A stretch of 64,000 nt of DNA from NCBI GenBank assembly GCA_038893995.1, contig JAWAQK010000001.1, positions 43,776 through 107,775 of the forward strand. The letters run 5' to 3'. Positions 7,150-25,649 of the stretch are shown here, one piece after another. The notes beneath the pieces are model-generated. The model was not told where the DNA came from. It made no database searches and saw only the letters and a program-made list of their open reading frames with translations. Numbering within the stretch: the first letter of the stretch is position 1; every line of letters starts with the position of its first letter. Made by a program: the position numbers and the translations under genes. The stretch is from Candidatus Thorarchaeota archaeon (GTDB taxonomy: Archaea; Asgardarchaeota; Thorarchaeia; Thorarchaeales; Thorarchaeaceae).

Positions 7150-8073
7150 GTGATGAAGACTAGCATGGAGAGGATAGCGTTTAGGCGGAGTCAGTTGCTC
7201 ACCATTGTACTCATCTGCATTGCAGCTGTAGTGGGCACTTGGGCATACCTGACAGGGGCCGCTCTTCCCGATGATACGCCACCACTGACTCCATGGAGTG
7301 TGTTGATCCTGATAGCAGTTGGTACGATGGCAGGTATCCTCGGCGGACTGATTGGCACTGGGGGATGTAGTATAATGCTACCAATACTACACTTCTGGTT
7401 GGGCTACCCAGCACCGGTGGCCATTGGGACCACGCTATTTGCAGTCATCTTCACTGCAACTTCCGGCGGTCACGGCCATCTAATACGTGGAAACATTGAC
7501 AGGAGCGCTGCAATGTGGTTGGGTGGCTTTGGTCTGATTGGTATCCTGATAGGGTCGTGGCTGTTTACAATTCTTGCTTCACAAGTAGCATTACTGGGAC
7601 TCATCCTCGGCATGGCGTTCATCCTGCCAGCTCTGCGGATGATATGGGAGGGGTCAAGACCTGCGGAACAGCCCCAAAAGGTAGGAGAGATGATCCAAGG
7701 CTCAAGATACCGAATGGGAGTCTTTGGAATCATCATCGGTGTCCTGACGGGCATTGTAGGCCTTGGTGGCGGCTATGCACTTGTCCCCGGCCTGATCTAC
7801 CTCTTCGGTGCCCCTGTGTATCTCACAATGGGCACATCTCTGTTGACCATGATACCCCTTGCACTGGTCGGAGGGACCATCAAGCTTGCACAGGGGTTCG
7901 TGGCTCTTGTAGCCGCTGTGACAATGGGGGCCGGCTCCACTGTGGGTGCCAGGTTCGCTGCGTCTATAATCAGACGCTTCAAGCCAACTCAACTGAAACT
8001 GCTCTTTGGCATCTACTTTCTCTACGTGTCGCTGAAGTTCATCCTCGGCTACTTTGGAATCATGATATGGTAG
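7150..8073 (+). CDS. TauE/SafE (DUF81) family membrane exporter.
   Basis: 307 aa and polytopic. Gly-rich helices GGLIGTGGCSIMLPIL and GIIIGVLTGIVGLGGGYALVPGLIYLFG are typical of the sulfite-exporter TauE/SafE family. Confidence 0.6.
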   Translation: MMKTSMERIAFRRSQLLTIVLICIAAVVGTWAYLTGAALPDDTPPLTPWSVLILIAVGTMAGILGGLIGTGGCSIMLPILHFWLGYPAPVAIGTTLFAVIFTATSGGHGHLIRGNIDRSAAMWLGGFGLIGILIGSWLFTILASQVALLGLILGMAFILPALRMIWEGSRPAEQPQKVGEMIQGSRYRMGVFGIIIGVLTGIVGLGGGYALVPGLIYLFGAPVYLTMGTSLLTMIPLALVGGTIKLAQGFVALVAAVTMGAGSTVGARFAASIIRRFKPTQLKLLFGIYFLYVSLKFILGYFGIMIW

Positions 8074-8728
8074 AACACTTCACAGACAGAATGTACTGAC
8101 TTGATCTGACCAGAGAAGGAGAATGATGAATAGTGTATGGGCCCGGTGCGGACGCTCGCACCGGGTACTGAACTACTAGGTCGGTGACCCTAGTCTAGTA
8201 TCCCACTAGCAGGCAGACCAGCCTAGGCCGTGATGATCGTCGTACGAGATCACATCTCTTGCTCTGATGTCTCTCGGACGCCTGTGATTGACGCGGCGCT
8301 TGCGAGGGGTTGAATGATTGTGTCTACTCACTCTCTCACCTCCTGACTCCCTGCAAGGTCGGTCTGCCTAGATGGTAAGAAACAAGTATGCAGTCGACCA
8401 CTGGCAATCAGCCCACACTCGTCGGAAAAGTACGAGAGAAGCAGATAGTCCAACACTGACGACGACCTGACTGCCGTGACTCCGTTGGTATGATCCGGGT
8501 GAACCATCTTGGAGCAGTTACACCTGCACATAAGAACAACTGGTGAATGCGAATAAATCTTTGCACGACGTCCCTGGTCCTTCGTGGCGGCAAATAGGGG
8601 CATTCTATGAGCGTAATGTGTTTCGAAGGGCGGCCTGGCCGAAACTCAGAGAAGGGCCGGACGAAGAAGTTCCGTGAGACCCGCTATGACACAATGCATA
8701 AGTGCGAACATCATGAAGGAGGTCGCTG

Positions 8729-9676
8729 ATGGTGCCTCTATCACGGATATACAGAAAGGCAATGATCACTCTACTTGAACTGGGGGTCATACTCACACCC
8801 ACTGCGTTATGGTGGATCGTCATGGATGGACTTGGACTCCCAGTCATGTCGGTCTTCCTGGAACTTGCGCTTCCTATAGCCGGACTCGGACTTGTGTTCC
8901 TCATGCTCGGAGGCATCGAGGTCGTGATGAACATCCATCAACACAGTGTCGCTGTCCGGGGCATCAAGTCCGTCCTCAGCTCCGCCAATATCTCCGGCCA
9001 GTTTACCCCGGCAATGCAACCGGCATATCTCCTTGCGGACTCAATGGACAGAGAGGTGCTCGCAGCCATCAGGGAGATTGGCTCAGACATCCTCGACATA
9101 GAGGATCATCTGGCAAGTAGCGCAGTGCTCCCTGCCGGACAGGACACCTACCGTGTCCTCGCCAAGCTGCGAATGTTGGGGCTGATCATGATATCAGAGA
9201 AATGGGGGAAGGTGTTTCTGACTTCGGCAGGGATTGATGCACTGAATACGCCTGCAATCATGTACACGACGCGGATCCCCGATCAAGTCTGGAACTATGT
9301 GTTTAGCGAGAAGGTCCATCTGTGGAATCAAGAGTGGGGCGAAGTCGTGATCTCTGCTACGAGAGCACTTGAGGCTGCAATGAAGGAGAGGGTCAGGGTC
9401 AGTGTGAGCGCACGGCCTGAGCTGGAACAGGAGATAATGGAGATGGCTGCCGGCAAGCCGGTTGAGACCTGGAGCGCAGGCAATCTGCTTGGAGCCCTGC
9501 GTAAGATAGGCGTGGTGAGATCCAGTAGCCTTGAGGACGTGTTGGCTGGCGAGATCATAAAGACGAGGAATCTGGTTCACGACAAGGGAAGAGAGTACAC
9601 GTTCGGACCGGGAGATGCGGACCGCTGCGACACATGCCTGAGTATCCTGCTGAGGTCATGGTATGGTCCCCGGTGA
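8729..9676 (+). CDS. Hypothetical protein (two N-terminal TM helices plus a soluble helical domain).
   Basis: 315-aa ORF after a 650-bp non-coding gap. The hydrophobic N-terminus is LLELGVILTPTALWWIVMDG / LALPIAGLGLVFLMLGG. No recognisable catalytic motif. Confidence 0.4.
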   Translation: MVPLSRIYRKAMITLLELGVILTPTALWWIVMDGLGLPVMSVFLELALPIAGLGLVFLMLGGIEVVMNIHQHSVAVRGIKSVLSSANISGQFTPAMQPAYLLADSMDREVLAAIREIGSDILDIEDHLASSAVLPAGQDTYRVLAKLRMLGLIMISEKWGKVFLTSAGIDALNTPAIMYTTRIPDQVWNYVFSEKVHLWNQEWGEVVISATRALEAAMKERVRVSVSARPELEQEIMEMAAGKPVETWSAGNLLGALRKIGVVRSSSLEDVLAGEIIKTRNLVHDKGREYTFGPGDADRCDTCLSILLRSWYGPR

Positions 9677-9701: not shown

Positions 9702-10556
9702 CTATGACTGCTCGTCCTCAACTACCGAAGCTATTCGAAGGGACCTTACAATCTCCTTGCACCGGGTTCTCAGTGTCACCTCGGTCACTCCGGCACTGAG
9801 CGCAATGGTCGCCTGGGGAATCCAGCAGTTGAGGTGTCTTCCTGCCAAGTAGATGGCCGCAGCCGCCATACCCCACGGATCCCTTCCAGCGACAAGTCCT
9901 CGCTTCTTTGACTCCTCGACTATGTCACACGCGTGCTTCACAACTTCGGTTCTAAGGTGCAGCTCTGCAGCCACACTCCTCACAGCCGCAGTCGGGTCAG
10001 GAGGAGGCGGTCTCAGGTGTAGCGAGCGGGCAACGATCCTGAATACCCTTTTGAGACGCTCTTCTGACACTCCAGCCATGCTTGCAACTCTGCCTAATTG
10101 TACAGGCTCTCCGGACATCCTACAGGCCGCATACACGGCAGCAGATACCAGTACGTCTCTGGATCGACCTCGAAGACAAACATGGCCAAACGCATCTCTC
10201 AGTATTCCCGATGCGATGACCCTGGTCTCATCGGGGATACCAAGCTTGAATGCGAGCGAGTGAAGACTGAACAGTGAATCACTCAGAAGACGTCTGCCCC
10301 TACGCTGGGATCTCACAGACAGTCTCCTCGTGATGTCAGTCCTGGGGCTTGTCACGCGACCAGGTCCGGAGTGTGTTGCAAGTGCAGTGTCTGCATTCGT
10401 CGACGTACCTGACGTCGTAGCACGAAGGGCATCCCGACCGGAGCCAGAAACGGACTTGACACTCGGGTCGTGACGATCTGAGGGAGAGTAATAGTCGTCA
10501 AGACGCGACTGCCAGTTGTGGTCTAGGTGGTCAGACTCACCGTCTCGCACTCTCAC
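9702..10556 (-). CDS. TFB/TFIIB-like protein with two cyclin repeats but no N-terminal zinc ribbon or B-reader.
   Basis: Two TFIIB-type cyclin repeats, RDVLVSAAVYAACRMSGEPVQLGRVASMAGVSEERLKRVFRIVARSL and RDPWGMAAAAIYLAGRHLNCWIPQATIALSAGVTEVTLRTRCKEIVRSL. The N-terminal 110 aa is low-complexity (S/T/R-rich) and has no CxxC pairs. Confidence 0.6.
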   Translation of the reverse strand: MRVRDGESDHLDHNWQSRLDDYYSPSDRHDPSVKSVSGSGRDALRATTSGTSTNADTALATHSGPGRVTSPRTDITRRLSVRSQRRGRRLLSDSLFSLHSLAFKLGIPDETRVIASGILRDAFGHVCLRGRSRDVLVSAAVYAACRMSGEPVQLGRVASMAGVSEERLKRVFRIVARSLHLRPPPPDPTAAVRSVAAELHLRTEVVKHACDIVEESKKRGLVAGRDPWGMAAAAIYLAGRHLNCWIPQATIALSAGVTEVTLRTRCKEIVRSLRIASVVEDEQS

Positions 10557-17728: not shown

Positions 17729-20032
17729 TCAGGAACGTATGTAGGACCTACGGTTGAGGACCGAACCGAGATGGACCATCACTCTACGCTCCACCATCGC
17801 AACACCATCCATCATCCGGACTGCACGAGAGATATTCGAGAGCACTGCATTCATGTACGGTTGTACCCTTGTCGGCTCTCCTTGAGCCATCATCCCTATG
17901 TAGGCATTGGTTATCTTTACTAGTCCTAGCCAGTCCTCGGGAAGTAGGAATGAAGACTCAAGGAACATATCATCTGATGGAATGGTTTCGGTGTGATCCA
18001 CAGACACCTCGTACTGAACCTCAAGGGCACTTAGAAGTCGCGAGAGCATATTTGTGAACGACGTTGCAACTGAGAGAATGAACTCACGAGACTCTGAGAT
18101 CGATGAGTCTTCTGAATGACATCTTCCGAATGACACGGCAGCTTGATGCAGCAGAGGAGCCAGTTCCTGGTGATTCCTGTTCTCGAAGAAGAGTCGGATT
18201 CCACTAGCCAGCAGGGCCTGGCCCTCCCAGTATCTTGTCAGGACGGGGTCAATATCATGTACCGAGAACTGCTCAGGACTGACGATGCCACTGACTGTTT
18301 CCGTACCAAGAGGTTGGATGTTTATCTTTGCTGTAGCAAAGGCCGCCATCAGCCTACCTACATCTCTGAGTTCAGAGTTGCGCTCCACGAGACTGAGGGC
18401 CCTTCTCTTGAGTTGGAACCAGTCACCGAACATCAGAGGCACAGCGAGTGATATTCCTTCAACGATCGAGGGACTGTCAGGAGGGCACAAGTCAAGGATC
18501 ATCCTATCCAGATCAAGAATGACCCTGCGCAGTCGCTCAGGAATGAATAGTCTATGCCTCAGAGAGAGCCAGGCAATATCGTACAATGCGATTGCGGCCT
18601 CGACAAGAGCACGCGAGTCAGAGGGAAAGAGTCGCATGTAGCGCAGTAGAGATTCACTCAGGAGATCGTTCGCACGGTCATCAATCGTTTCGGACTCACA
18701 GATTGCCGCGAGGCCCAATCCAACCATGGAGCTCAGTAATGCAATCTCCAGGCATTGACCCTTGTTGAGTAGAGATGTCCTCATCTCTACAGAACGCTGA
18801 AACGACTCAACTGCGGCAGACCGAAACTCTGCAGACTCCGAGAGTAGACAGGCCCAGCCAATAGCATGCAGACAACTGGCGATCTCAGACATCATGTCGT
18901 TCTCTGGAGACTTCAGGTCGTCTGCGACTTTCTGAGCCCGGCGGAGGTAGTCGATTGCAAGTGCTGTGCCGTCATCACTTCCGGTCAGGCTGTGGGCATG
19001 GCCGAGACCTACTAGGCAGCGCAGCAATGCCATCCGCTGCTCTCTTGTCGGGTCCTCGATCGATTCATAGACTGCGAGAGCCGCGTTCAGGCGTTCTACG
19101 GCCTGGGGTATCGCCTCCCGCCACCCACCAATGAGTATCGTCGAACCTACTAGAAGATATGCTGCCGCGAGATCGCCCCTGGTCATAAGACCTGCATCCA
19201 CGCTTCTCTCGTACTCCTGCAGTGCACGGTCAGCAAGGTCACGGGCAGTCTGATAGCTCACACCTTCGTCTCGCGTCTCATTTATCGCAAGCTGGAGAGC
19301 CAGTTGAATCCGTGATGCGGGCGGGAGTTCGGAGCCCATCTCTGATTCAAGCTGTTTCAGTAGACTCCTGGAGCGATCGAAGAGTTCCAGGTCAGTAAGG
19401 ACGGAGGCGAGGTCCAGGGTGAGGTCCAGCAAGAGGTCTCTGAATCCCAGCTGTCGTGATACTGAGAGTAGCCGGTCCAGGAGTGGTTCGGCACACTCTG
19501 CAAGGCCTTCATCCATCAGGGACCTGGCCAGGTAGTGCACCTCGGCCACTGCCAACTTGGTGAAGGATATCTGGTCACGGGCGATGATCGAGTCTAGCGT
19601 ATGGAGTGTTTCGTCAGCCAGGAATGCCAAGAGGGGACGTAGACCATGCCCTAAGGAGACTGACATGGACTGGCCCAGCTCACCAAGCAGGTCAATCAGA
19701 ATTGGCAGAGCCTCAAGATCGGGAAGGTCCTCCGCCGCCGTACGTCTGTACTCATTGGTGAACCTGGTGTCCAGTAGAGATATCAGCTCTGACAGCTCCG
19801 ATGTCTTATCAAATGAGTGACGCACGATGAGTTCAAGGAACTTGTAGTTTGCAAGTGCCGGCCTTCTGAGAAGCACTTCCTCGAGGGCTCGTGCCAACTC
19901 ATGACCCAGTTCATGAGAGTCGGGGGAGAAACGTGAGATTCCTTGAAGTGCAGCGAGACCATCGTCGAGGGAGACAGATGCACACAGTAGGTCCCTCAAG
20001 ATTGTCCGAATCCTTGGATCCAAACAGTTCAC
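17729..20032 (-). CDS. Large helical-repeat (TPR/HEAT-like) hypothetical protein.
   Basis: 767 aa, Leu/Ala/Glu/Arg-rich, predicted all-alpha, no catalytic motifs. Sits 47 bp downstream of the KaiC-like pair on the same strand. Confidence 0.5.
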   Translation of the reverse strand: MNCLDPRIRTILRDLLCASVSLDDGLAALQGISRFSPDSHELGHELARALEEVLLRRPALANYKFLELIVRHSFDKTSELSELISLLDTRFTNEYRRTAAEDLPDLEALPILIDLLGELGQSMSVSLGHGLRPLLAFLADETLHTLDSIIARDQISFTKLAVAEVHYLARSLMDEGLAECAEPLLDRLLSVSRQLGFRDLLLDLTLDLASVLTDLELFDRSRSLLKQLESEMGSELPPASRIQLALQLAINETRDEGVSYQTARDLADRALQEYERSVDAGLMTRGDLAAAYLLVGSTILIGGWREAIPQAVERLNAALAVYESIEDPTREQRMALLRCLVGLGHAHSLTGSDDGTALAIDYLRRAQKVADDLKSPENDMMSEIASCLHAIGWACLLSESAEFRSAAVESFQRSVEMRTSLLNKGQCLEIALLSSMVGLGLAAICESETIDDRANDLLSESLLRYMRLFPSDSRALVEAAIALYDIAWLSLRHRLFIPERLRRVILDLDRMILDLCPPDSPSIVEGISLAVPLMFGDWFQLKRRALSLVERNSELRDVGRLMAAFATAKINIQPLGTETVSGIVSPEQFSVHDIDPVLTRYWEGQALLASGIRLFFENRNHQELAPLLHQAAVSFGRCHSEDSSISESREFILSVATSFTNMLSRLLSALEVQYEVSVDHTETIPSDDMFLESSFLLPEDWLGLVKITNAYIGMMAQGEPTRVQPYMNAVLSNISRAVRMMDGVAMVERRVMVHLGSVLNRRSYIRS

Positions 20033-20079
20033 CCGCGATGCGGGTTGACTATTTCATTGGACTGTTAAAGACTTCCGTA

Positions 20080-20787
20080 TCAGCTGAGTCTGAACTCGAC
20101 CCACGCGCGCTTGGTCTCAGTCCCTCTCATTCTCTCCATCCGCACGAAGAACTTGGGAGTATCGCTAGTATCATCCACCCTGAATCTCAGGACCGCATCT
20201 GCGGAGTACGCGAAGCTGGCATACGTCTTGTCGTCATGTACCCCCTCCTCGAGAATGTACATGATACTGTGAGAACCCTGAGTCAGTCGACCGCTGAGTC
20301 TTTGCACGGCCTGAGGTAGAGCTGCAGCACTGGAACTCATGATGAGTGTCGTCAGGCTGTCAACCACGACTCTTGCAACTACAAGTTTCTCCAGCGCCTC
20401 CGTGAGGACGATTCCAAGCTCTGTTATGTCGTCGACCTTTGAGAGTGAGTAGGGACTTGTGCTCTTGACGCCCATCCGGTCCGAATACCCATCTACAAAG
20501 GTGAACATACCATTTCGCTCGTGCTTCTCGATCGGCCAACCATGTCGGCTCATGTCGTTTCGTATCACTCTGGGAGATACATCTGTCGTCACAAAGACCG
20601 CAGGGAAACCCAGCACTAGCCCCTCGGCGAGATATGCCTCGGCATACGTGGTCTTTCCAGAGCCTATCGGCCCCAGTAGCAATATCGACTGTTGAGTCAG
20701 TTGGCCAAACTCGACCAGGTCTCCTAATGTGGGGCTCACCTTGACAGGGTTGCGTTCGTCGATTCGACTATCATCTCGAGCCGTCAA
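20080..20787 (-). CDS. KaiC/RadA-like single-domain RecA-superfamily ATPase.
   Basis: Walker A LLLGPIGSGKTT. Walker B region VVVDSLTTL. 235 aa. Confidence 0.7.
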   Translation of the reverse strand: MTARDDSRIDERNPVKVSPTLGDLVEFGQLTQQSILLLGPIGSGKTTYAEAYLAEGLVLGFPAVFVTTDVSPRVIRNDMSRHGWPIEKHERNGMFTFVDGYSDRMGVKSTSPYSLSKVDDITELGIVLTEALEKLVVARVVVDSLTTLIMSSSAAALPQAVQRLSGRLTQGSHSIMYILEEGVHDDKTYASFAYSADAVLRFRVDDTSDTPKFFVRMERMRGTETKRAWVEFRLS

Positions 20788-20814
20788 TCAATTCACCTCT
20801 CGGATCTAGCTGAT

Positions 20815-21558
20815 TCAGCTGCCGGGGCTTATCTCAGTAGGCCAGACCCGAATACCCTCGTCAGTGATTCTCATGGAGTGTATCCTGGAGCTGTGCTTGG
20901 ATCCTCGGAGCTTCAATACCTCGATCGAACGGGAACGCGACGTGTCGCTTATCTTCTCGTTGTAGAGCACAATGACGCCTGATGCAAGGAAGGCTTCGAT
21001 GTCAAATACGCCCAGTCCGGTGTCCTGTGCAGGTATCTCTGATGTCAGCAGCAGGGTGGCACCTGTGCCTGTTATCTTGGAGCACATCTTGAAGAACTCT
21101 TCTCTGAGAATGTCTCTGCTCCTGAACTTGTATGCAAGGATTGATAGGGTGTCTATGACTACTCTCTTGGCATTCACCTTCTTCATGTTGCTCAGGATGA
21201 TTGACACTAGTGCCGACAGGTCGAAGCTCGGATACTCCTCCACCATGACGGGAGAGGGACGTGACGGTGACAGGTCTACGATCGCCAGCATACCCTGGTT
21301 CTCTAGTTTCTCGAGGTCCATGCCAAATCTCAACATGTTGCGCTTTATGAGGTGAGGGGGCTCCTCGAGAGTGACAAGCACGCCAGGTTCTCCGTATTCG
21401 GTGGCTCCCTTATACAGGAACTGGTTTGCGAGAATGCTCTTCCCAGTACCTGCCTTTCCTGCAATGAGTATGGTGTCACCTCTGGGAAAACCTCCCTCTA
21501 TCAGTTCGTCGAGTCCCGGGATTCCGGTCTTGACTCTATCAATTTGGTAGCCGGTCAT
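20815..21558 (-). CDS. KaiC/RadA-like single-domain RecA-superfamily ATPase.
   Basis: TGIPGLDELIEGGFPRGDTILIAGKAGTGKS (Walker A) and VVIDTLSIL (Walker B). The start is either the internal Met (MTGYQIDRV, 21558) or 21588. Confidence 0.7.
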   Translation of the reverse strand: MTGYQIDRVKTGIPGLDELIEGGFPRGDTILIAGKAGTGKSILANQFLYKGATEYGEPGVLVTLEEPPHLIKRNMLRFGMDLEKLENQGMLAIVDLSPSRPSPVMVEEYPSFDLSALVSIILSNMKKVNAKRVVIDTLSILAYKFRSRDILREEFFKMCSKITGTGATLLLTSEIPAQDTGLGVFDIEAFLASGVIVLYNEKISDTSRSRSIEVLKLRGSKHSSRIHSMRITDEGIRVWPTEISPGS

Positions 21559-21910
21559 CTGGAACACCTCTACGTTTTCTGTATCCAAGGATCATCCTGA
21601 GGATTGACTCTGGTTCGGGTATGCCGGTTATGGAGGCACCTCCGATCATTATCGTCGGAGCAGCGAGTACCCCATAGTACTGTGCGACTTCTGGCTCTTG
21701 GACCACATCAATCTCTCGCAGAGTGAACATGTCAGTATCAAACTCGCCAAGTATGTCTAGCAGTACCTGTTTAGCTCGCGGACAGAAGGGGCATTCATCG
21801 TGGCTAAAGAAGAGGACCTCAACCTTCGAGGATTCCTTCCCATCTTTGGAGCACCCTTCTTCATCAGACGGAGCCAACGAGACGCACTCCCTGTCCTGTG
21901 TGACCTCCAA
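21539..21910 (-). CDS. Thioredoxin/glutaredoxin-like protein (CPFC active site).
   Basis: VLFFSHDECPFCPRAKQVL ... PTIMIGG is a thioredoxin-fold pattern. 123 aa with an acidic N-terminal extension. Same operon as Roadblock and the KaiC-like genes. Confidence 0.55.
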   Translation of the reverse strand: MEVTQDRECVSLAPSDEEGCSKDGKESSKVEVLFFSHDECPFCPRAKQVLLDILGEFDTDMFTLREIDVVQEPEVAQYYGVLAAPTIMIGGASITGIPEPESILRMILGYRKRRGVPDDRLPN

Positions 21911-21948
21911 CTGTGGAGCTGTGCTCTATTGAATGTTATTGCGTCGGC

Positions 21949-22335
21949 CTAACGACGATATGCCATCATCTTTCGTATCTTGGTCGCCACTTTCCCGAGC
22001 GACCGAGAGTGATATCTGAGATGCCGAGGCATCACTGCGGCCAAGAGGAAGGACTGCCCACTGTCGACCAATATCTTGCGGACGACAAACTTTCCCTCCG
22101 AACAACGAATGGAGATCTCGGAGAGCTCCCCAAGCAGCAGTTCGTTCCGGAGACGCTCAACGGAGGAGGCCACATAGCCAGACATTGCAGCAACGATGTC
22201 ACGGTTTGTGGTGGGGGATGCTGAGGATGCCATGAGTAGGCCGTCATCTCGCGCAAGGATTGATGCGACATAGCCTCCGTTTCTGACCATGTCATCAAGC
22301 ATCTCGGTCAATGCCCTGTAGTCAGGTCTTTCCAT
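21949..22335 (-). CDS. Roadblock/LC7 (MglB-like) domain protein.
   Basis: 128 aa. GGYVASILARDDGLLMAS...AAMSGYVASSVERL...SEISIRCSEGKFVVRKILVDSGQSFLLAAVM matches the Roadblock/LC7 alpha-beta-alpha pattern. Confidence 0.7.
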   Translation of the reverse strand: MERPDYRALTEMLDDMVRNGGYVASILARDDGLLMASSASPTTNRDIVAAMSGYVASSVERLRNELLLGELSEISIRCSEGKFVVRKILVDSGQSFLLAAVMPRHLRYHSRSLGKVATKIRKMMAYRR

Positions 22336-22482
22336 GTGAATCGCTCCGTCATCCCTAATCGATTGCGCATTTTTCTTTTAAAGGATGAGGTCACATCCCC
22401 TGCTCCAGTATCTTGCAGTTGCACTCACAACATAGTTTTAAGTTAGGCTCCAAATGTGAGTCAGACGAGGATGTGATGTCGT

Positions 22483-23031
22483 TTGACTGCCGAATATAGA
22501 TTCAAGGTGGTCATGCTCGGTGATGGCGCGGTAGGGAAGACTGCGCTCACCAACATGTTCACGCAGGGCCACTTCATCTCCGAATACAAACGGACGATTG
22601 GGTCAGACTTTGCAGTCAAACGTGTCTCAGTACCCCAGAGGAATGCACAGGTCACTCTCCAGGTATGGGACTTGGCAGGACAACCACGATTCGAGATAGT
22701 CAGGCAATCTTTCTATCGTGGAGCAAGAGGAGGATTGCTTGTCTACGATGTCACACGACGCAGGACATTCCTGAACCTCGATCACTGGAGACAGGAAACT
22801 AAGAACAGTCTGAGTCGCGAAATACCCCTGGTCGTGGTCGCCAACAAGGTGGATCTGACAGGCGCACGCGTCGTGACGAGGGAGGAGGGAGAACAGTATG
22901 CTGCCAAGAGCGGACTCATATATGTGGAGGCAAGTGCACTCACAGGCCAGAACGTAGAGGATGCATTCGTGGAACTATGTGTCGAGATGATCGACGAGTC
23001 AAAGTCGGAAGCGAGATCTCAGACAGGTTGA
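22483..23031 (+). CDS. Rab/Ras-like small GTPase (Asgard type, no C-terminal prenylation motif).
   Basis: G1 GDGAVGKT. Switch I YKRTIGSDF (Rab-like TIGxDF). G3 WDLAGQ. G4 NKVDL. G5 EASA. 182 aa. Confidence 0.8.
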   Translation: MTAEYRFKVVMLGDGAVGKTALTNMFTQGHFISEYKRTIGSDFAVKRVSVPQRNAQVTLQVWDLAGQPRFEIVRQSFYRGARGGLLVYDVTRRRTFLNLDHWRQETKNSLSREIPLVVVANKVDLTGARVVTREEGEQYAAKSGLIYVEASALTGQNVEDAFVELCVEMIDESKSEARSQTG

Positions 23032-24179
23032 CCCTTCAAGAGGCCTAGATGCTTCTTGCACTGCCAGACGATATAGAAGATGGTCTTGTCCTGCAACACC
23101 TCACTGCCATATTGTGACATCAGGGACTCGAACCTGCGTACCAGATCAACCCTTCTCTCGCCTGCAGTATCGCTCTCGATCTCTCGCAGCAGTGCCTGGA
23201 GGGGCTCAATCATTGCAGTCCTGTCGACGATTTCCCACCGCCTTATTGCTCCGGTGGACTCACAGGTCAGGAACTCGTTCGAATCTGCCACCCATTCTAG
23301 AGAGTCCGGTTCGCCCCGTGTCATTGTCTCGGCCTGCCTAGTGAAATCACTTGTCCGCCACAGGAAGATGTTCTTGTCAGCAGACCCAGACGCAATAAGG
23401 GACCCATCGTGGTTGAATCCCACACAGCGGACCTCTTGTGTATGTCCTGTGAGTGTCTTCTCATGTCTGAGCTGCCCGTCTGAGGCGTCCCAGACCATGA
23501 CCGTCTGATCAGAAGATGCCGAGGCCACCCTGGTACCGTCCCTGGAAAAGCGCACCTGATGCAGTGCAGATCTGTGTTCTTGGAGCCACTCTATCCTCTC
23601 ACCAGTCGTCGGATCCCAGAGACCAATCATCGCATCGACACCACCGGACACTATCCGATCTCCACGAGGATCCCAGTCGCAGGACACTACGTATAGAGAA
23701 TGGCCCTTGAGCTGTCTCAGTGGCTTGGAACTGCCGATGTCCCACACCATGAGGGTCGTATCGCCACTCGATGACACTAACCTATCGCAGTCGGGAGAGA
23801 AGGCGAGCGACAATATGGGATACCGATGACCCTCGAGACGACATATCAACTCTGCACTCCTGACGTCCCAGACCTTGATAACCCTGTCAACACCACCAGA
23901 CGCTATCACATCACTCCGGGGGCTGAATGCAAGGGCTGTGCACAGGAAGTCGTCTGTGATTCGCTGGACCTCTTGGCAGTCTCTCGCATCGTACAGACGT
24001 ATTGTTCGGTCCTGATGAGCAGCAGCGAACATGCGTCCCACTCTGTTGATGGTGAAACGACGAATGATGTCGTCAGCAGTTTCCGCCTCGGGTCTTAGCA
24101 GCCTAGGACGAAGAAACAATGATGGTACGGACTCCGTCATCTTGCTCACCAGAGTGATTGTCATCGTCTCAAGCAGCAT
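23019..24179 (-). CDS. WD40 repeat (7-bladed beta-propeller) protein with a C-terminal helical tail.
   Basis: Seven GH...WD-type repeats (VWDVRS, MVWDIGS, IGLWDPTT, VMVWDASD, IFLWRTSD, IRRWEIVD). The C-terminal roughly 70 aa are non-WD. Starts 82 bp downstream of the second Rab-like gene on the same strand. Confidence 0.8.
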   Translation of the reverse strand: MLLETMTITLVSKMTESVPSLFLRPRLLRPEAETADDIIRRFTINRVGRMFAAAHQDRTIRLYDARDCQEVQRITDDFLCTALAFSPRSDVIASGGVDRVIKVWDVRSAELICRLEGHRYPILSLAFSPDCDRLVSSSGDTTLMVWDIGSSKPLRQLKGHSLYVVSCDWDPRGDRIVSGGVDAMIGLWDPTTGERIEWLQEHRSALHQVRFSRDGTRVASASSDQTVMVWDASDGQLRHEKTLTGHTQEVRCVGFNHDGSLIASGSADKNIFLWRTSDFTRQAETMTRGEPDSLEWVADSNEFLTCESTGAIRRWEIVDRTAMIEPLQALLREIESDTAGERRVDLVRRFESLMSQYGSEVLQDKTIFYIVWQCKKHLGLLKGQPV

Positions 24180-24261
24180 ATCTAAAAAGAGTTGTGAGGA
24201 TGCGATGGGCCCCTCAAGTCAGTATGGTATGGGTGGCTGGTGGTCCGAAGATGAGCATGGC

Positions 24262-24834
24262 TCAGAGAGTACTCTGGCCAATCGACTCGACCATCATGAT
24301 GATGAGCTCAATGAATGCCTTCTCCACGTTGTGTCCGGTCTTGGCAGATGTTTCAAGGAAGACCGTGCTGACCCCACTTTCTCTGAGCGCCTGTGTGAAC
24401 TTCTCACCCTCCTGCGTCGTGACTATCGATCCCTTCATGGCAGGATTGTCCTTGAACTGGTCCCGGAGATCAGTCTTGTTGCCGATGACTACAATAGGAA
24501 TGGTCTTGCCTGTGTTCGCCCAGCACTCCTCAAGCCAGTTGGGAAGATTATCAAATGACGAACGTTCCACAGTCGAGTATACAGCCAATGCTCCCTGGGC
24601 ACCCTTGTAGAAGGTTGATCGTACGTTCTTGAAGTGAGCCTGTCCAGCAAGATCCCATATCTGGATGTGCACCTCTGTGCCACTCTCAAGTGCCAGTTTT
24701 TTCACTGCGAAATCGGCGCCGATGGTGACCATGTATGAGGCCTTGAAACCTTCGCCCATGTAGGTCCGACGGAGCGAAGTCTTACCTACTGAGCCGTCGC
24801 CCATGAGAACTATCTTGAACAATGCTCTCGGCAT
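24262..24834 (-). CDS. Rab/Ras-like small GTPase.
   Basis: G1 GDGSVGKT. TIGADF. WDLAGQ. GNKTDL. ETSAKTGHNVEKAF. 190 aa. Confidence 0.8.
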   Translation of the reverse strand: MPRALFKIVLMGDGSVGKTSLRRTYMGEGFKASYMVTIGADFAVKKLALESGTEVHIQIWDLAGQAHFKNVRSTFYKGAQGALAVYSTVERSSFDNLPNWLEECWANTGKTIPIVVIGNKTDLRDQFKDNPAMKGSIVTTQEGEKFTQALRESGVSTVFLETSAKTGHNVEKAFIELIIMMVESIGQSTL

Positions 24835-25079: not shown

Positions 25080-25649
25080 ATGCCACATCATCGATGGAAT
25101 CTCCTCAAGGCACTTCCCGAGAGACCACCGATGGCGTTGTTCGCTCGGGACACAGTCCCAGCGGCTCTGTATACGGTGGCCCCGCTGACTAATGCTATCA
25201 ACATTCACTTTCGGTCATCCGTCCCCGACGAACACGTCTGTGAGAATGAACATGAGTCAGAAACAAACCCCAACTATGACGTCATCTTGAGGAAACTACA
25301 ACCTGTAAGGAAACATCGTATCAGAACCCCCTCCTGGAGTTGGATTGAGATGGGTAGGACAGCCCATACCTTTCACGATCTCCTCGCAATGGAGGAGAAA
25401 CGCTGGAGTCAGTTCAGACGCGTACTCAGACAGTCGAAGCGGGAGTTGGTGGACAGGGTGTTCGACTACGCCAGAAAGAATTCTGATGCTGGCTCAATGG
25501 TATTGACACTCCGACCAATGGAAGTCGTACTCATGACTGCAGTCATTGAGATCCTCGACGAGCTGACCAGACTTGATGAGCGAGTCGGTATGCTGGAGAG
25601 GAGGGTCATGGGAGGTGCCAGCAGCGAAGAAGCGAGGCTGGCTACTTGA
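25080..25649 (+). CDS. Hypothetical protein.
   Basis: 189-aa ORF upstream of polB, overlapping it by 76 nt. No motifs recognised. The true start may be an internal Met (MGRTAHTFHDLL). Confidence 0.3.
   Translation: MPHHRWNLLKALPERPPMALFARDTVPAALYTVAPLTNAINIHFRSSVPDEHVCENEHESETNPNYDVILRKLQPVRKHRIRTPSWSWIEMGRTAHTFHDLLAMEEKRWSQFRRVLRQSKRELVDRVFDYARKNSDAGSMVLTLRPMEVVLMTAVIEILDELTRLDERVGMLERRVMGGASSEEARLAT

Follow-up and report, generated by a model that had tools for sequence, protein, structure and literature searches.

A WD40 protein confined to Thorarchaeota and encoded beside Thor-Rab: a candidate partner of a Rab-like GTPase

Asgard archaea have dozens of genes for Rab-, Arf- and Rag-like GTPases. 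To our knowledge, almost nothing is known about the partners of these proteins. A group of genes in a 64-kb stretch of Thorarchaeota DNA (the window) raises the question of whether a GTPase and its partners might be encoded side by side. Positions 21949-24834 of the window contain one Roadblock gene, two genes for Rab-like GTPases (GTPase A and GTPase B), and one gene for a seven-bladed WD40 protein. Does the WD40 protein work with either GTPase, and if so, with which one?

We found all of the genes that a preliminary description of this DNA had listed, each where it had been placed. As that description had claimed, both GTPases are Rab-like (the solved structures that match them best are those of Rabs) and the two GTPases, the WD40 protein and the Roadblock protein form a compact cluster, which proved to be common to about 60 Thorarchaeota species. 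We compared the four proteins with all open reading frames of the window using phmmer. All four signature genes were inside 2.9 kb, and no further gene for a WD40 protein, a Rab-like GTPase or a Roadblock protein was present in the 64 kb. In the same species the cluster has a fixed position between housekeeping genes, and an entire block of ~17 kb is syntenic: F420 ligase, LarC-like, PolB, the cluster, the KaiC genes, a 767-aa protein, and EF-2.

A Thorarchaeota-specific WD40 protein with a conserved helical tail

The WD40 open reading frame (23019-24179, minus strand) encodes 386 aa from its first ATG and matches Pfam WD40 with 166.9 bits (cutoff 27). Alignment with 34 orthologues placed the real start at M14 (position 24140), giving a protein of 373 aa. 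This start is supported by an SD-like motif, GGTGA, directly 5' of the ATG at 24140, and by a conserved TATA-like box some 50 nt further upstream, within which the first ATG of the open reading frame falls.

The preliminary description had proposed seven blades and a C-terminal helical tail, and structure prediction with AF2 bore this out (pLDDT 92.6, pTM 0.87). A disordered N-terminus leads into a strand, and 28 strands make up seven blades of four strands each (residues 21-319 of the 386-aa open reading frame), with LFLRPRLLR as the closing strand. The M14 start, the closing strand and the propeller, assigned by alignment, AF2 and Pfam, correspond to 23223-24140 (minus strand). Pfam WD40 calls five stretches, and seven units of the GH...WD type are visible in the sequence. 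Several Pfam beta-propeller families passed their thresholds together, as expected of a consensus-like WD40 protein. In Foldseek, the model matched seven-bladed WD40 structures as a closed propeller (target-normalised TM up to 0.93). The matches were generic propellers (the prokaryotic 5yzv, ODA16, Tup1, WDR5, and G-beta; E 1e-25 to 1e-30, 25-31% identity). The protein is like these scaffolds in fold and repeat chemistry. However, it is orthologous to none of them, and its C-terminal helical tail had no match in the Foldseek results.

The tail, about 65 aa, is encoded together with the stop codon by 23019-23222 (minus strand). AF2 placed helices at residues 320-336, 343-354, 359-362 and 365-378 (pLDDT 91-96); the last of them is not strongly amphipathic. 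The tail terminates in a near-invariant motif, FYxxWQCKxxLGLLKG, and the orthologue alignment contains nine invariant tail residues (P326, L331, L362, F368, Y369, W372, L378, L381 and K382). No Pfam family matched the tail. A search of 1.84 billion representative proteins with a profile of the tail gave six hits, all of them members of the same WD40-tail family or fragments of members.

The family comprises about 82 full-length clusters at 50-60% identity, below which scores fall from 397 to 295 bits, where generic WD40 proteins begin. We recovered 63 loci encoding a WD40-tail protein, almost all in MAGs labelled Thorarchaeota or unclassified archaeon. These results show that the WD40-tail protein belongs to a lineage-specific family, confined to Thorarchaeota, in which a canonical seven-bladed propeller is joined to a unique and highly conserved four-helix tail. 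The preliminary description had named membership in a widespread housekeeping family as an outcome that would undo its reading, and the restriction to Thorarchaeota speaks against such membership. We know of no homologue of the WD40-tail protein with a known partner.

Several more specific identities were considered and rejected. The preliminary description had seen a resemblance to RCC1-like or coatomer-like proteins, which did not hold up. The best 25 of 47 Pfam matches were all to WD40-type beta-propellers and included no RCC1 family, the repeats are of the canonical WD40 type, and Foldseek found only generic WD40 propellers. The propeller is followed by just four helices (about 60 aa) and not by an alpha-solenoid of the kind found in coatomer or proto-coatomer architectures. 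A heterotrimeric G-beta subunit was rejected on the basis of the N-terminus, which is disordered and then forms a strand, and of the neighbouring GTPases, which are Ras-fold proteins of 182-190 aa without a helical domain. The helix of G-beta is N-terminal and pairs with G-gamma, whereas the helices of the WD40-tail protein are C-terminal. An anti-phage defence system was rejected as well: PADLOC gave nothing beyond a generic match to WD40 repeats and two marginal P-loop hits, and the position of the locus is fixed.

Thor-Rab and a Roadblock protein as neighbours of the WD40-tail gene

We found that GTPase A (22483-23031, plus strand; 182 aa; Pfam Ras 172.9 bits) is the positional orthologue of Thor-Rab, a crystallised GTPase with demonstrated activity. 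GTPase A matched Thor-Rab (PDB 7EZB) over its full length (266.5 bits, E 7.6e-79; about 69% identity by tblastn). On the SMTZ1-45 contig LRSL01000056.1, the gene at the position of GTPase A encodes a protein 100% identical to 7EZB. After Thor-Rab, the top PDB sequence matches of GTPase A were Rab14, Rab2 and Rab11. Its motifs include R37 in switch I (YKRTIG), DLAGQ, and NKVD, and across 31 orthologues R37 is conserved to at least 90%. Compared by eye with the RabF1-F5 consensus of Pereira-Leal and Seabra, the corresponding segments (IGSDF, TLQVW, RFEIVR, FYRGA and LVYDVT) were mostly a good match. The C-terminus (...SEARSQTG) has no Cys and so no CC, CXC or CAAX motif.

The structure and GTPase activity of Thor-Rab (PDB 7EZB/7EZD/7EZE) have been reported (Tran et al. 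2024, Commun Biol, PMC10933270). On its own, Thor-Rab is a slow GTPase, with activity comparable to that of Rab11B, and its RMSD is 1.04 Å to Rab1B versus 2.38 Å to MglA (PMC10933270). High similarity of its RabF motifs was reported; its Arg37 aligns with Arg53 of MglA, and other Thor Rab paralogues are without Arg37 (PMC10933270). The protein is without C-terminal cysteines, and homologues of REP and Rab GGTase were not found (PMC10933270). GTPase A, from a different Thorarchaeota species, shares with Thor-Rab the Arg37, the Rab-like core, the absence of C-terminal cysteines, and the genomic position in SMTZ1-45. The authors noted that partners (which GAPs or GEFs belong to which GTPase) are hard to predict from genome layout, and the word "WD40" does not occur in their text, which leaves the neighbour unmentioned (PMC10933270).

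The stable neighbour of the WD40 gene is GTPase A, not GTPase B. The two genes are convergent, as the preliminary description had claimed, and the junction between them was intact in 54/54 loci, with a median spacing of 6 nt. At one exceptional locus the WD40 gene was kept and GTPase A was missing. The preliminary description had also reported that the two stop codons overlap in the window. In fact, the coding regions share 13 nt (23019-23031), whereas the stop codons (23019-21 and 23029-31) are separate. Such an overlap is ordinary here and not a meaningful feature, as 8/10 convergent pairs in the window are within 25 nt of each other and 4 overlap.

On its other side, GTPase A adjoins the Roadblock/LC7 gene (21949-22335, minus strand), which encodes 128 aa and matches Robl_LC7 with 26.9 bits (cutoff 23). 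The protein had weak PDB matches to the Asgard Roadblock structure 7F8M and to LAMTOR2. It is a different paralogue from the crystallised Thor-RB (KXH72322.1), and we consider it a candidate MglB-like regulator of GTPase A. The Roadblock gene adjoined GTPase A in 46/50 loci, with a median spacer of 149 nt; the other 4/50 hold unrelated insertions. In the window, each of the two genes has a TATA-like box of its own in the divergent spacer (22336-22482), TTTTAAG on the side of GTPase A and TTTAAAAG on that of Roadblock. Orthologous spacers contain conserved gene-specific boxes, ACAGTAGAATTTTAAGG before GTPase A and TTTAATAGG before Roadblock.

The Roadblock gene heads a same-strand run, the rest of which (17729-21910, minus strand) was annotated with Pfam and NCBIfam as a CPFC thioredoxin-fold protein, two single-domain KaiC-family ATPases and the 767-aa protein. 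The latter had no PDB match. All four junctions (Roadblock to thioredoxin-fold, thioredoxin-fold to the first KaiC, first to second KaiC, and second KaiC to the 767-aa protein) were kept in 40-43/40-43 loci, and their median spacers range from -4 to 89 nt.

We suggest, with a probability of about 0.4, that the WD40-tail protein is a candidate partner of these two neighbours, a scaffold or effector in a Thor-Rab/Roadblock switch. Thor-Rab would cycle between its GTP and GDP forms. The Roadblock protein, probably a dimer, would act on Thor-Rab in the manner of MglB: as a GAP, it would bring the Arg37 and Gln of the GTPase itself into position. In this switch, the WD40-tail protein would serve as a protein-interaction platform. 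It might be an effector that binds GTP-bound Thor-Rab. Alternatively, it might be an adaptor whose helical tail docks on the Roadblock dimer, like the helices of the dynein intermediate chain or of LAMTOR1. The narrower proposal, that it is a direct partner of Thor-Rab (effector, GEF or GDI-like platform) with the Roadblock protein as an MglB-like GAP, seems to us unlikely.

It is also quite possible that these genes are neighbours by descent only, that the function of the WD40-tail protein is unrelated to GTPases, and that the gene order has been inherited in a compact, slowly rearranging region. The whole ~17 kb block is syntenic, not just the cluster. The convergent pair of LarC-like and PolB genes, which are unrelated, was adjacent in 32/32 loci (median 2.5 nt) and is as invariant as the junction between the WD40 gene and GTPase A. 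Synteny is therefore weak evidence for a link to Thor-Rab, since all of the loci come from one lineage and an unrelated pair is equally fixed. Insertions were found only where a junction includes the start of one or both genes; convergent junctions, which contain no promoter, are poor targets for insertion. There is also no sign of shared regulation, because each gene of the cluster has its own promoter-like box, different from the others.

Covariation of the distances between proteins pointed both ways. Under the first of two controls, 19/28 gene pairs were "significant". Covariation between the WD40-tail protein and GTPase A is not robust: r was 0.44 under the first control and 0.17 (p = 0.06) under the second. 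Under the second control, r was 0.51 between the WD40-tail protein and PolB, a value without functional meaning, and WD40 distances followed those of PolB at least as well as those of the GTPases, consistent with shared descent. In contrast, covariation between the WD40-tail and Roadblock proteins survived both controls (r 0.35 and 0.32), which counts against an explanation by descent only. For GTPase A and Roadblock, r was 0.37 and 0.38 under the two controls.

Two further observations count against descent only. Neighbourhoods of a GTPase with a Roadblock gene, and of a GTPase with KaiC, recur in other Asgard classes. In addition, the WD40 gene is flanked by two Rab-like GTPases, with a Roadblock gene further out, and the other 61 kb contain no gene of these kinds, an arrangement unlikely to be due to chance (below 1%, as a rough estimate from Asgard gene counts).

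GTPase B and the WD40-tail gene

GTPase B (24262-24834, minus strand; 190 aa; Pfam Ras 149.8 bits) shares 41% identity with GTPase A. Its motifs are GDGSVGKT (G1), DLAGQ (G3) and NKTD (G4). It has V36 where GTPase A has R37, and a 9-aa insert after NKTDL, at the position of the Rho insert. Its best PDB sequence matches were Thor-Rab and then Rab2, Rab1 and Rab8, and the top 50 Foldseek matches of its AF2 model (pLDDT 88.9) were all Rabs. By eye, the segments corresponding to the RabF1-F5 consensus are IGADF, HIQIW, HFKNVR, FYKGA and AVYSTV, with RabF5 degenerate. The C-terminus (...SIGQSTL) has no Cys and so no CC, CXC or CAAX motif; we found no lipid-anchor motif in either GTPase. A protein identical to GTPase B (P0126) is encoded in an NCBI Thorarchaeota MAG.

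We found that the adjacency of GTPase B to the WD40 gene varies. GTPase B was directly adjacent in 17/46 loci, 436-572 nt away in 6, and more than 1.3 kb away in 23. In at least four loci (L013, L017, L028 and L029) it was missing from the upstream sequence, which in each case extends over more than 4.5 kb. At two loci that we inspected (L018 and L013), the gap holds an opposite-strand gene for a 405-aa HEAT-repeat protein, whose middle region is rich in beta structure and whose C-terminal region is alpha/beta. This HEAT-repeat gene was divergent from and directly upstream of the WD40 gene in 37/63 loci, and is absent from the 64-kb window. These results show that GTPase B is a very conserved Rab-like paralogue in its own right, and that its adjacency to the WD40 gene differs between clades. 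The preliminary description had looked to synteny in other Asgard genomes, which was not found: the WD40 family occurs only in Thorarchaeota, and five of the closest relatives of GTPase B outside Thorarchaeota had no WD40 gene in the flanking DNA that we inspected, which reached up to 5 kb to either side.

The spacer between GTPase B and the WD40 gene (24141-24261, minus strand) contains a promoter-like element, CACAACTCTTTTTAGATA, at about 24179-24196, in addition to the SD-like motif. In 59/59 loci a conserved promoter-like BRE/TATA element preceded the WD40 start, regardless of which gene lies upstream. The element, TTCAYAAsAYTTTTAS, was 43-55 nt upstream of the start in 57/59 loci (49-51 nt in 42), and 32 and 63 nt upstream in the other two. 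An SD-like motif preceded the start in 54/59 loci. The only match to TTCAYAAsAYTTTTAS in the window is the one in this spacer. The WD40 gene thus appears to be transcribed on its own from this conserved promoter-like element. Judged by these sequence features, GTPase B and the WD40 gene probably do not form an operon, with read-through transcription possible.

The preliminary description had placed GTPase B and the WD40 gene in one operon, 82 bp apart on the same strand. The strand is correct, and the stop codon of GTPase B is indeed 82 nt from the first ATG of the WD40 open reading frame, but the distance to the real start, M14, is 121 nt. We consider it improbable that the two are a co-transcribed GTPase-effector or GEF pair, like RCC1-Ran, Sec12-Sar1 or coatomer. 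The shared strand, the short spacer of 82-121 nt in the window and the 17 loci with direct adjacency are consistent with such a pair, and beta-propellers, among them Sec12 and RCC1, can act as GEFs for small GTPases. However, the conserved promoter-like element lies inside the spacer, and GTPase B is often distant or absent. Moreover, distances of the WD40-tail protein and GTPase B did not covary (r = 0.10 and -0.19 under the two controls), the WD40-tail protein has neither an RCC1 match among its best 25 Pfam matches nor an alpha-solenoid, and the five outside relatives of GTPase B are without a WD40 neighbour.

Least probable is a split proto-coat or adaptor, in which GTPases would recruit the propeller and a separate helical-repeat protein for membrane remodelling: the frequent upstream HEAT-repeat gene (405 aa) and the weak TPR hit of the 767-aa protein in the neighbouring conserved run could supply such a partner, but the HEAT gene is missing from the window, the WD40-tail and 767-aa proteins did not covary in distance (r = 0.09 and -0.03 under the two controls), the WD40-tail protein itself has no solenoid, the GTPases have no lipid-anchor motif, and the final tail helix is not strongly amphipathic.

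Relation to known GTPase systems

The pairing of Thor-Rab with a Roadblock protein is reminiscent of MglA-MglB, a bacterial switch for polarity made up of a Ras-like GTPase and its Roadblock/LC7 GAP. GTPase A has a switch-I arginine at the position of Arg53 of MglA, and its gene adjoins one for a Roadblock/LC7 protein. Unlike MglA, GTPase A is Rab-like in sequence and structure. The G3 motif of the MglA type is TxxGQ instead of DxxGQ, and GTPase A has the canonical form (DLAGQ). In addition, GTPase A and Roadblock are divergent genes with separate promoter-like boxes and not an operon, and insertions separate them in 4/50 loci. We know of no WD40 partner of MglA or MglB.

WD40 and Roadblock proteins also occur together in eukaryotic assemblies, the dynein intermediate chain with Roadblock/LC7 and Ragulator/GATOR2 with Rag, the latter with GTPases. 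In these assemblies, a propeller protein with helical segments docks on Roadblock dimers, and GTPases are regulated by Roadblock-fold proteins. The same types of domain are encoded here, a comparison that we regard as a lead. Evidence of homology does not extend beyond the shared domains, and the helical segment is C-terminal here.

An operon of a LAMTOR1-like Roadblock protein, a Rab-like GTPase and a DENN protein was described in most Asgard lineages (Liu et al. 2020/2021, bioRxiv 10.1101/2020.10.19.343400), in a study that treats WD40 as a promiscuous domain. The cluster is like that operon in pairing, as a conserved Asgard feature, a Roadblock-superfamily protein with a Rab-like GTPase. 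It differs in its third component, the WD40-tail protein, and in being found only in Thorarchaeota. Pfam scans of the cluster genes gave no DENN hit, and there was no DENN among the Pfam families of three orthologous loci.

The neighbourhood of Thor-Rab, conserved across about 60 Thorarchaeota species, contains an uncharacterised Roadblock paralogue and a WD40-tail protein found only in this lineage. As Thor-Rab has already been expressed, purified, crystallised and assayed, these are two concrete candidate partners. If the link between them is false, the locus is a warning that conserved synteny in a single lineage is no proof of functional coupling. If the link is true, the proteins would form a first defined regulatory or effector module for an Asgard Rab-like GTPase. 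Under the narrower proposal of a direct partner, the locus would encode an archaeal GTPase switch of three parts, with a beta-propeller that reads the state of a Rab-like GTPase. This would be an independent, Thorarchaeota-specific parallel to eukaryotic pairs of a propeller and a GTPase such as G-beta/G-alpha, Sec12/Sar1 and GATOR2/Rag, and Thor-Rab would be the first Asgard Rab-like GTPase with defined partners.

Gene content and boundaries of the region

We assigned genes between 17.7 and 29.2 kb of the window with Pfam and NCBIfam. Two Rab-like GTPases, GTPase A (22483-23031, + strand; Ras family, 172.9 bits) and GTPase B (24262-24834, - strand; Ras family, 149.8 bits), flank a WD40 open reading frame (ORF) (23019-24179, - strand; 166.9 bits against a cutoff of 27), and a Roadblock/LC7 protein is encoded at 21949-22335 (- strand). 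A phmmer search with these four signature proteins against all ORFs of the 64-kb window gave no further WD40, Rab-like GTPase or Roadblock gene. The cluster that the preliminary description had pointed out is therefore real and localised.

The Roadblock gene is part of a same-strand run with short or overlapping spacers (17729-22335, - strand), together with a CPFC thioredoxin-fold protein (21539-21910), two single-domain KaiC-family ATPases (first, 20080-20787; second, 20815-21588) and a 767-aa protein (17729-20032). This run looks like a real operon in which KaiC-type ATPases are connected with a Roadblock protein. The thioredoxin-fold protein is MJ0307-like, with weak KaiB matches. The 767-aa protein has only a weak TPR match, and no match in PDB or NCBIfam. 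Beyond GTPase B are a small ORF, PolB (family-B DNA polymerase; + strand) and a LarC-like nickel-insertion protein (- strand). A 189-aa ORF (25080-25649, + strand) lies upstream of PolB and overlaps it. Its C-terminal part corresponds to a small conserved gene (about 90-100 aa, annotated DUF8156) that is always ahead of PolB in related loci, and its 5' end is probably over-extended.

We found that the start of the WD40 gene had to be moved. Alignment of 34 full-length orthologues placed the family start at the equivalent of ORF residue M14, giving a 373-aa protein that begins at position 24140. The ATG at 24140 is preceded by a Shine-Dalgarno-like motif (GGTGA), and the first ATG of the ORF falls within a TATA-like box. 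With this start, GTPase B and the WD40 gene are separated by 121 nt rather than by the 82 bp first described. An exact-sequence look-up of the 386-aa ORF gave no record because its start was over-extended.

The WD40 gene had also been described as overlapping GTPase A stop on stop. The coding regions do overlap, by 13 nt, and the stop codons themselves are separate. An overlap of this kind is ordinary in this genome: among the 10 convergent ORF pairs in the window, 8 lie within 25 nt and 4 overlap, and these pairs include the genes for PolB and the LarC-like protein (-25 nt) and for EF-2 and the 767-aa protein (+4 nt). Convergent 3' overlaps of 44 nt (35822-37879/37836-38996), 25 nt (25573-27888/27864-29219) and 4 nt (60822-61610/61607-62440) were seen. 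Since such overlaps are common, terminators must often fall inside the opposing gene.

Conservation of gene order and of promoter-like elements

We scanned one genome per GTDB species and recovered 63 related loci (designated by L numbers). Synteny was analyzed by tblastn of the window proteins against these loci, plus ORF boundary calls, and genes were considered adjacent if the gap was 300 nt or less. In the canonical order, the LarC-like gene converges on PolB, GTPase B is followed in the same direction by the WD40 gene, which converges on GTPase A, and the genes for Roadblock, thioredoxin-fold, KaiC, KaiC and 767-aa proteins follow, transcribed in that order.

WD40 and GTPase A were adjacent in all 54 of 54 loci (median spacing 6 nt, range -59 to +53). 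GTPase B and WD40 were adjacent in only 17 of 46 (median 968 nt) and were more than 1.3 kb apart in 23. Based on these counts, the GTPase B-WD40 junction, on which the preliminary description had put the emphasis, is the least stable of the cluster and the WD40-GTPase A junction the most stable. GTPase A and Roadblock were adjacent in 46 of 50 loci (median 149 nt), and the four junctions within the Roadblock run were intact wherever scored (40-43 of 40-43 loci; medians -4 to 89 nt). On the other side, PolB and GTPase B were never adjacent (0/37; median 554 nt).

The insertions between GTPase A and Roadblock were unrelated genes (pyruvate kinase in L007, membrane proteins in L054), and GTPase A was absent from L050. 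In L046, GTPase A seemed to have given way to a different paralogue, a reading that we rejected: over its C-terminal two-thirds the protein is almost identical to the usual orthologue, and the divergent N-terminus falls at a contig end, most likely through an assembly artefact.

In the GTPase B-WD40 gaps inspected, the space was filled by an opposite-strand gene for a 405-aa HEAT-repeat protein. This gene was also present in L013, L017, L028 and L029, where GTPase B was missing across more than 4.5 kb of upstream sequence. In 37 of the 63 loci (L018:6616-7839, - strand; L013:6671-7888, - strand; and 35 others), the HEAT gene (protein of about 405 aa) lies directly upstream of the WD40 gene and divergent from it; it is absent throughout the 64-kb window. 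Its product carries HEAT repeats at the N-terminus (Pfam HEAT_2, 33 bits), followed by a middle region rich in beta structure and a C-terminal region of alpha/beta type, an architecture that loosely recalls adaptor/appendage proteins.

We found a conserved element, TTCAYAAsAYTTTTAS (in the window, CACAACTCTTTTTAGATA), upstream of the WD40 start in 59 of 59 loci. It resembles an archaeal BRE plus TATA box. It was 49-51 nt upstream in 42 of the 59 loci and 43-55 nt upstream in 57, and was kept whether the upstream neighbour was GTPase B, a small ORF or the divergent HEAT gene. Positions that the search pattern did not force were also almost invariant (A at -9, 58/59; A at -8, 56/59; A at -11, 53/59), and the motif has a single match in the whole window. 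GTPase A, GTPase B and Roadblock have their own, differing conserved TATA-like boxes, and no cis-element common to the four promoters was found. Because each gene has a separate conserved box, the WD40 gene is most likely monocistronic, though some read-through may occur. The proposal that it shares one operon with GTPase B is unsupported, given the promoter-like element ahead of WD40 in every locus.

The WD40-tail protein and the two GTPases

An AF2 model of the WD40 protein, built from the orthologue alignment (pLDDT 92.6, pTM 0.87), has 28 strands forming seven four-stranded blades (residues 21-319), followed by tail helices at 320-336, 343-354, 359-362 and 365-378. Foldseek against PDB matched the propeller to generic seven-bladed WD40 propellers only (25-31% identity), including a Thermomonospora WD40 domain, ODA16, Tup1, WDR5 and G-beta, and left the tail unmatched (query-normalised TM about 0.7). 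Several Pfam beta-propeller families were above threshold simultaneously for the ORF, which is consensus-like WD40 behaviour and no evidence for orthology.

Conservation of the tail is high: P326, L331, L362, F368, Y369, W372, L378, L381 and K382 are invariant in the orthologue alignment, and the tail contains the motif FYxxWQCKxxLGLLKG. It matched no Pfam family, and a tail-only word-index search gave no candidates with common words. When a tail profile was run against 1.84 billion representative proteins, it matched just six, each a member or a fragment of the WD40-tail family. In one of the six, a 128-aa metagenomic protein (P0125), the last 40 tail residues (QYDDEVLRDKRLFYIIWQCKKALGLLKG) are joined to an unrelated N-terminus, which might reflect a chimeric assembly or, rarely, shuffling of domains. 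A C-terminal amphipathic membrane anchor is not indicated (hydrophobic moment of the last tail helix below 0.45).

In a search of 5.8 billion proteins, full-length orthologues (about 375 aa, 50-60% identical) fell into about 82 clusters, from Thorarchaeota wherever named. Scores fell sharply past the family, from 397 to 295 bits, and the next matches were long generic WD40 proteins. The 63 loci were nearly all from metagenome-assembled genomes (MAGs) labelled Thorarchaeota or unclassified archaeon, with a few carrying the phylum name Promethearchaeota and one labelled Hermodarchaeota. The WD40-tail protein is a Thorarchaeota-specific family. It is not a widespread housekeeping family, an alternative that the preliminary description had raised.

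GTPase A matched the crystallised "Thorarchaeota Rab" (Thor-Rab; PDB 7EZB, 7EZD, 7EZE) over its full length (266.5 bits). Thor-Rab comes from Thorarchaeota SMTZ1-45 contig LRSL01000056.1 (PMC10933270). That contig is one of our loci (L021), where a gene encoding exactly the 7EZB protein (100% identity) takes the place of GTPase A, convergent on a WD40 orthologue. Thor-Rab has the accession KXH73347.1; in L021 the WD40-tail gene is at 8028-9119 and the neighbouring Roadblock gene at 9828-10205. Tran et al. (PMC10933270) reported that Thor-Rab is structurally closest to Rab1B (RMSD 1.04 A) and farther from MglA (2.38 A), that its GTP hydrolysis is slow, comparable to that of Rab11B, and that it is without prenylatable cysteines. 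Its Arg37 takes the position of the MglA intrinsic arginine finger, Arg53, and is unique to Thor-Rab among the Rab paralogues of that genome (PMC10933270). In the window, GTPase A has R37, which is at least 90% conserved across orthologues. The Roadblock protein crystallised by Tran et al. is another paralogue than the one adjoining Thor-Rab. They noted that genome layout makes matching GTPases to GAPs or GEFs hard, and WD40 is unmentioned throughout their paper (PMC10933270).

The two GTPases share 41% identity, and GTPase B shows the strongest conservation of all proteins in the region (mean pairwise distance 0.19). It has V36 in place of the switch arginine of GTPase A, a degenerate RabF5-like motif (AVYSTVER) and, at about residues 121-139, a 9-aa insert (DLRDQFKDNPAMKG). 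The insert immediately follows the G4 region (NKTDL), where Rho-family GTPases have their insert helix. The top 50 Foldseek matches of its AF2 model (pLDDT 88.9) were all Rabs. An identical copy is present in an NCBI Thorarchaeota MAG, and the window is therefore thorarchaeal. Beyond Thorarchaeota, its nearest relatives share 50-56% identity with it; among them are Baldr-, Heimdall- and Kariarchaeal proteins, which are without the insert and AVYSTVER; these two features were found in Thorarchaeota and one sister group only.

Outside Thorarchaeota, the GTPase B-WD40 pairing did not recur: no WD40 gene was present in five contexts of GTPase B relatives (DNA examined up to 5 kb per side). In Baldrarchaeia (L074:3579-5567) the relative adjoins a 470-aa KaiC/GvpD-type ATPase and a second small GTPase, and in Heimdallarchaeum (L073:1960-5564) it has a Roadblock gene 3 kb away. 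This suggests that GTPase-KaiC and GTPase-Roadblock neighbourhoods recur in other Asgard classes, without WD40.

Possible role of the WD40-tail protein

The WD40-tail protein, with its own promoter-like element, is thus permanently tail-to-tail with the Thor-Rab orthologue, beside the Roadblock-led run, and GTPase B is a neighbour in its own right, adjacent in some loci and not in others. Pairing of a Roadblock protein with a small GTPase is known in bacteria (MglA/MglB). By analogy, Thor-Rab, with its MglA-like arginine, and the adjoining Roadblock protein would form an MglA/MglB-like switch, of which the WD40-tail protein would be a scaffold or effector, possibly docking via its helical tail. 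We hold this candidate role tentatively, at a probability of roughly 0.4.

Our results might also indicate that the gene order is merely inherited, the genes being neighbours by descent. This is the main rival, and we regard it as a serious possibility, short of an even chance. The LarC-like/PolB junction is equally invariant (adjacent in 32/32 loci; median 2.5 nt) and joins functionally unrelated genes, and junction conservation within a single lineage is, alone, no proof of functional coupling. The main argument against pure chance is thematic coherence, with four signalling-type genes within 2.9 kb.

Covariation of pairwise protein distances over the loci (mirror-tree, partial Mantel) was measured with two different controls. 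The correlations under controls 1 and 2, respectively, were 0.37 and 0.38 for GTPase A-Roadblock, 0.35 and 0.32 for WD40-Roadblock, 0.44 and 0.17 for WD40-GTPase A, and 0.10 and -0.19 for GTPase B-WD40. Nominal significance was reached by 19 of 28 pairs under control 1, and the highest value under control 2 was for WD40-PolB (r = 0.51), which is functionally meaningless. Covariation is control-dependent and counts as weak, ranked evidence. A defence-system reading was rejected: it found no support in a PADLOC scan, and the locus context is fixed and housekeeping.

All domains of the cluster are already known, and an Asgard Roadblock-Rab-like-DENN operon was described by Liu et al. (bioRxiv 10.1101/2020.10.19.343400). 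Neither the WD40-tail family nor the neighbourhood of Thor-Rab turned up in the searchable literature. These findings are valuable mainly for the concrete, immediately testable partner candidates that they offer for Thor-Rab, the one Rab-like GTPase of Asgard archaea already available in purified and crystallised form.
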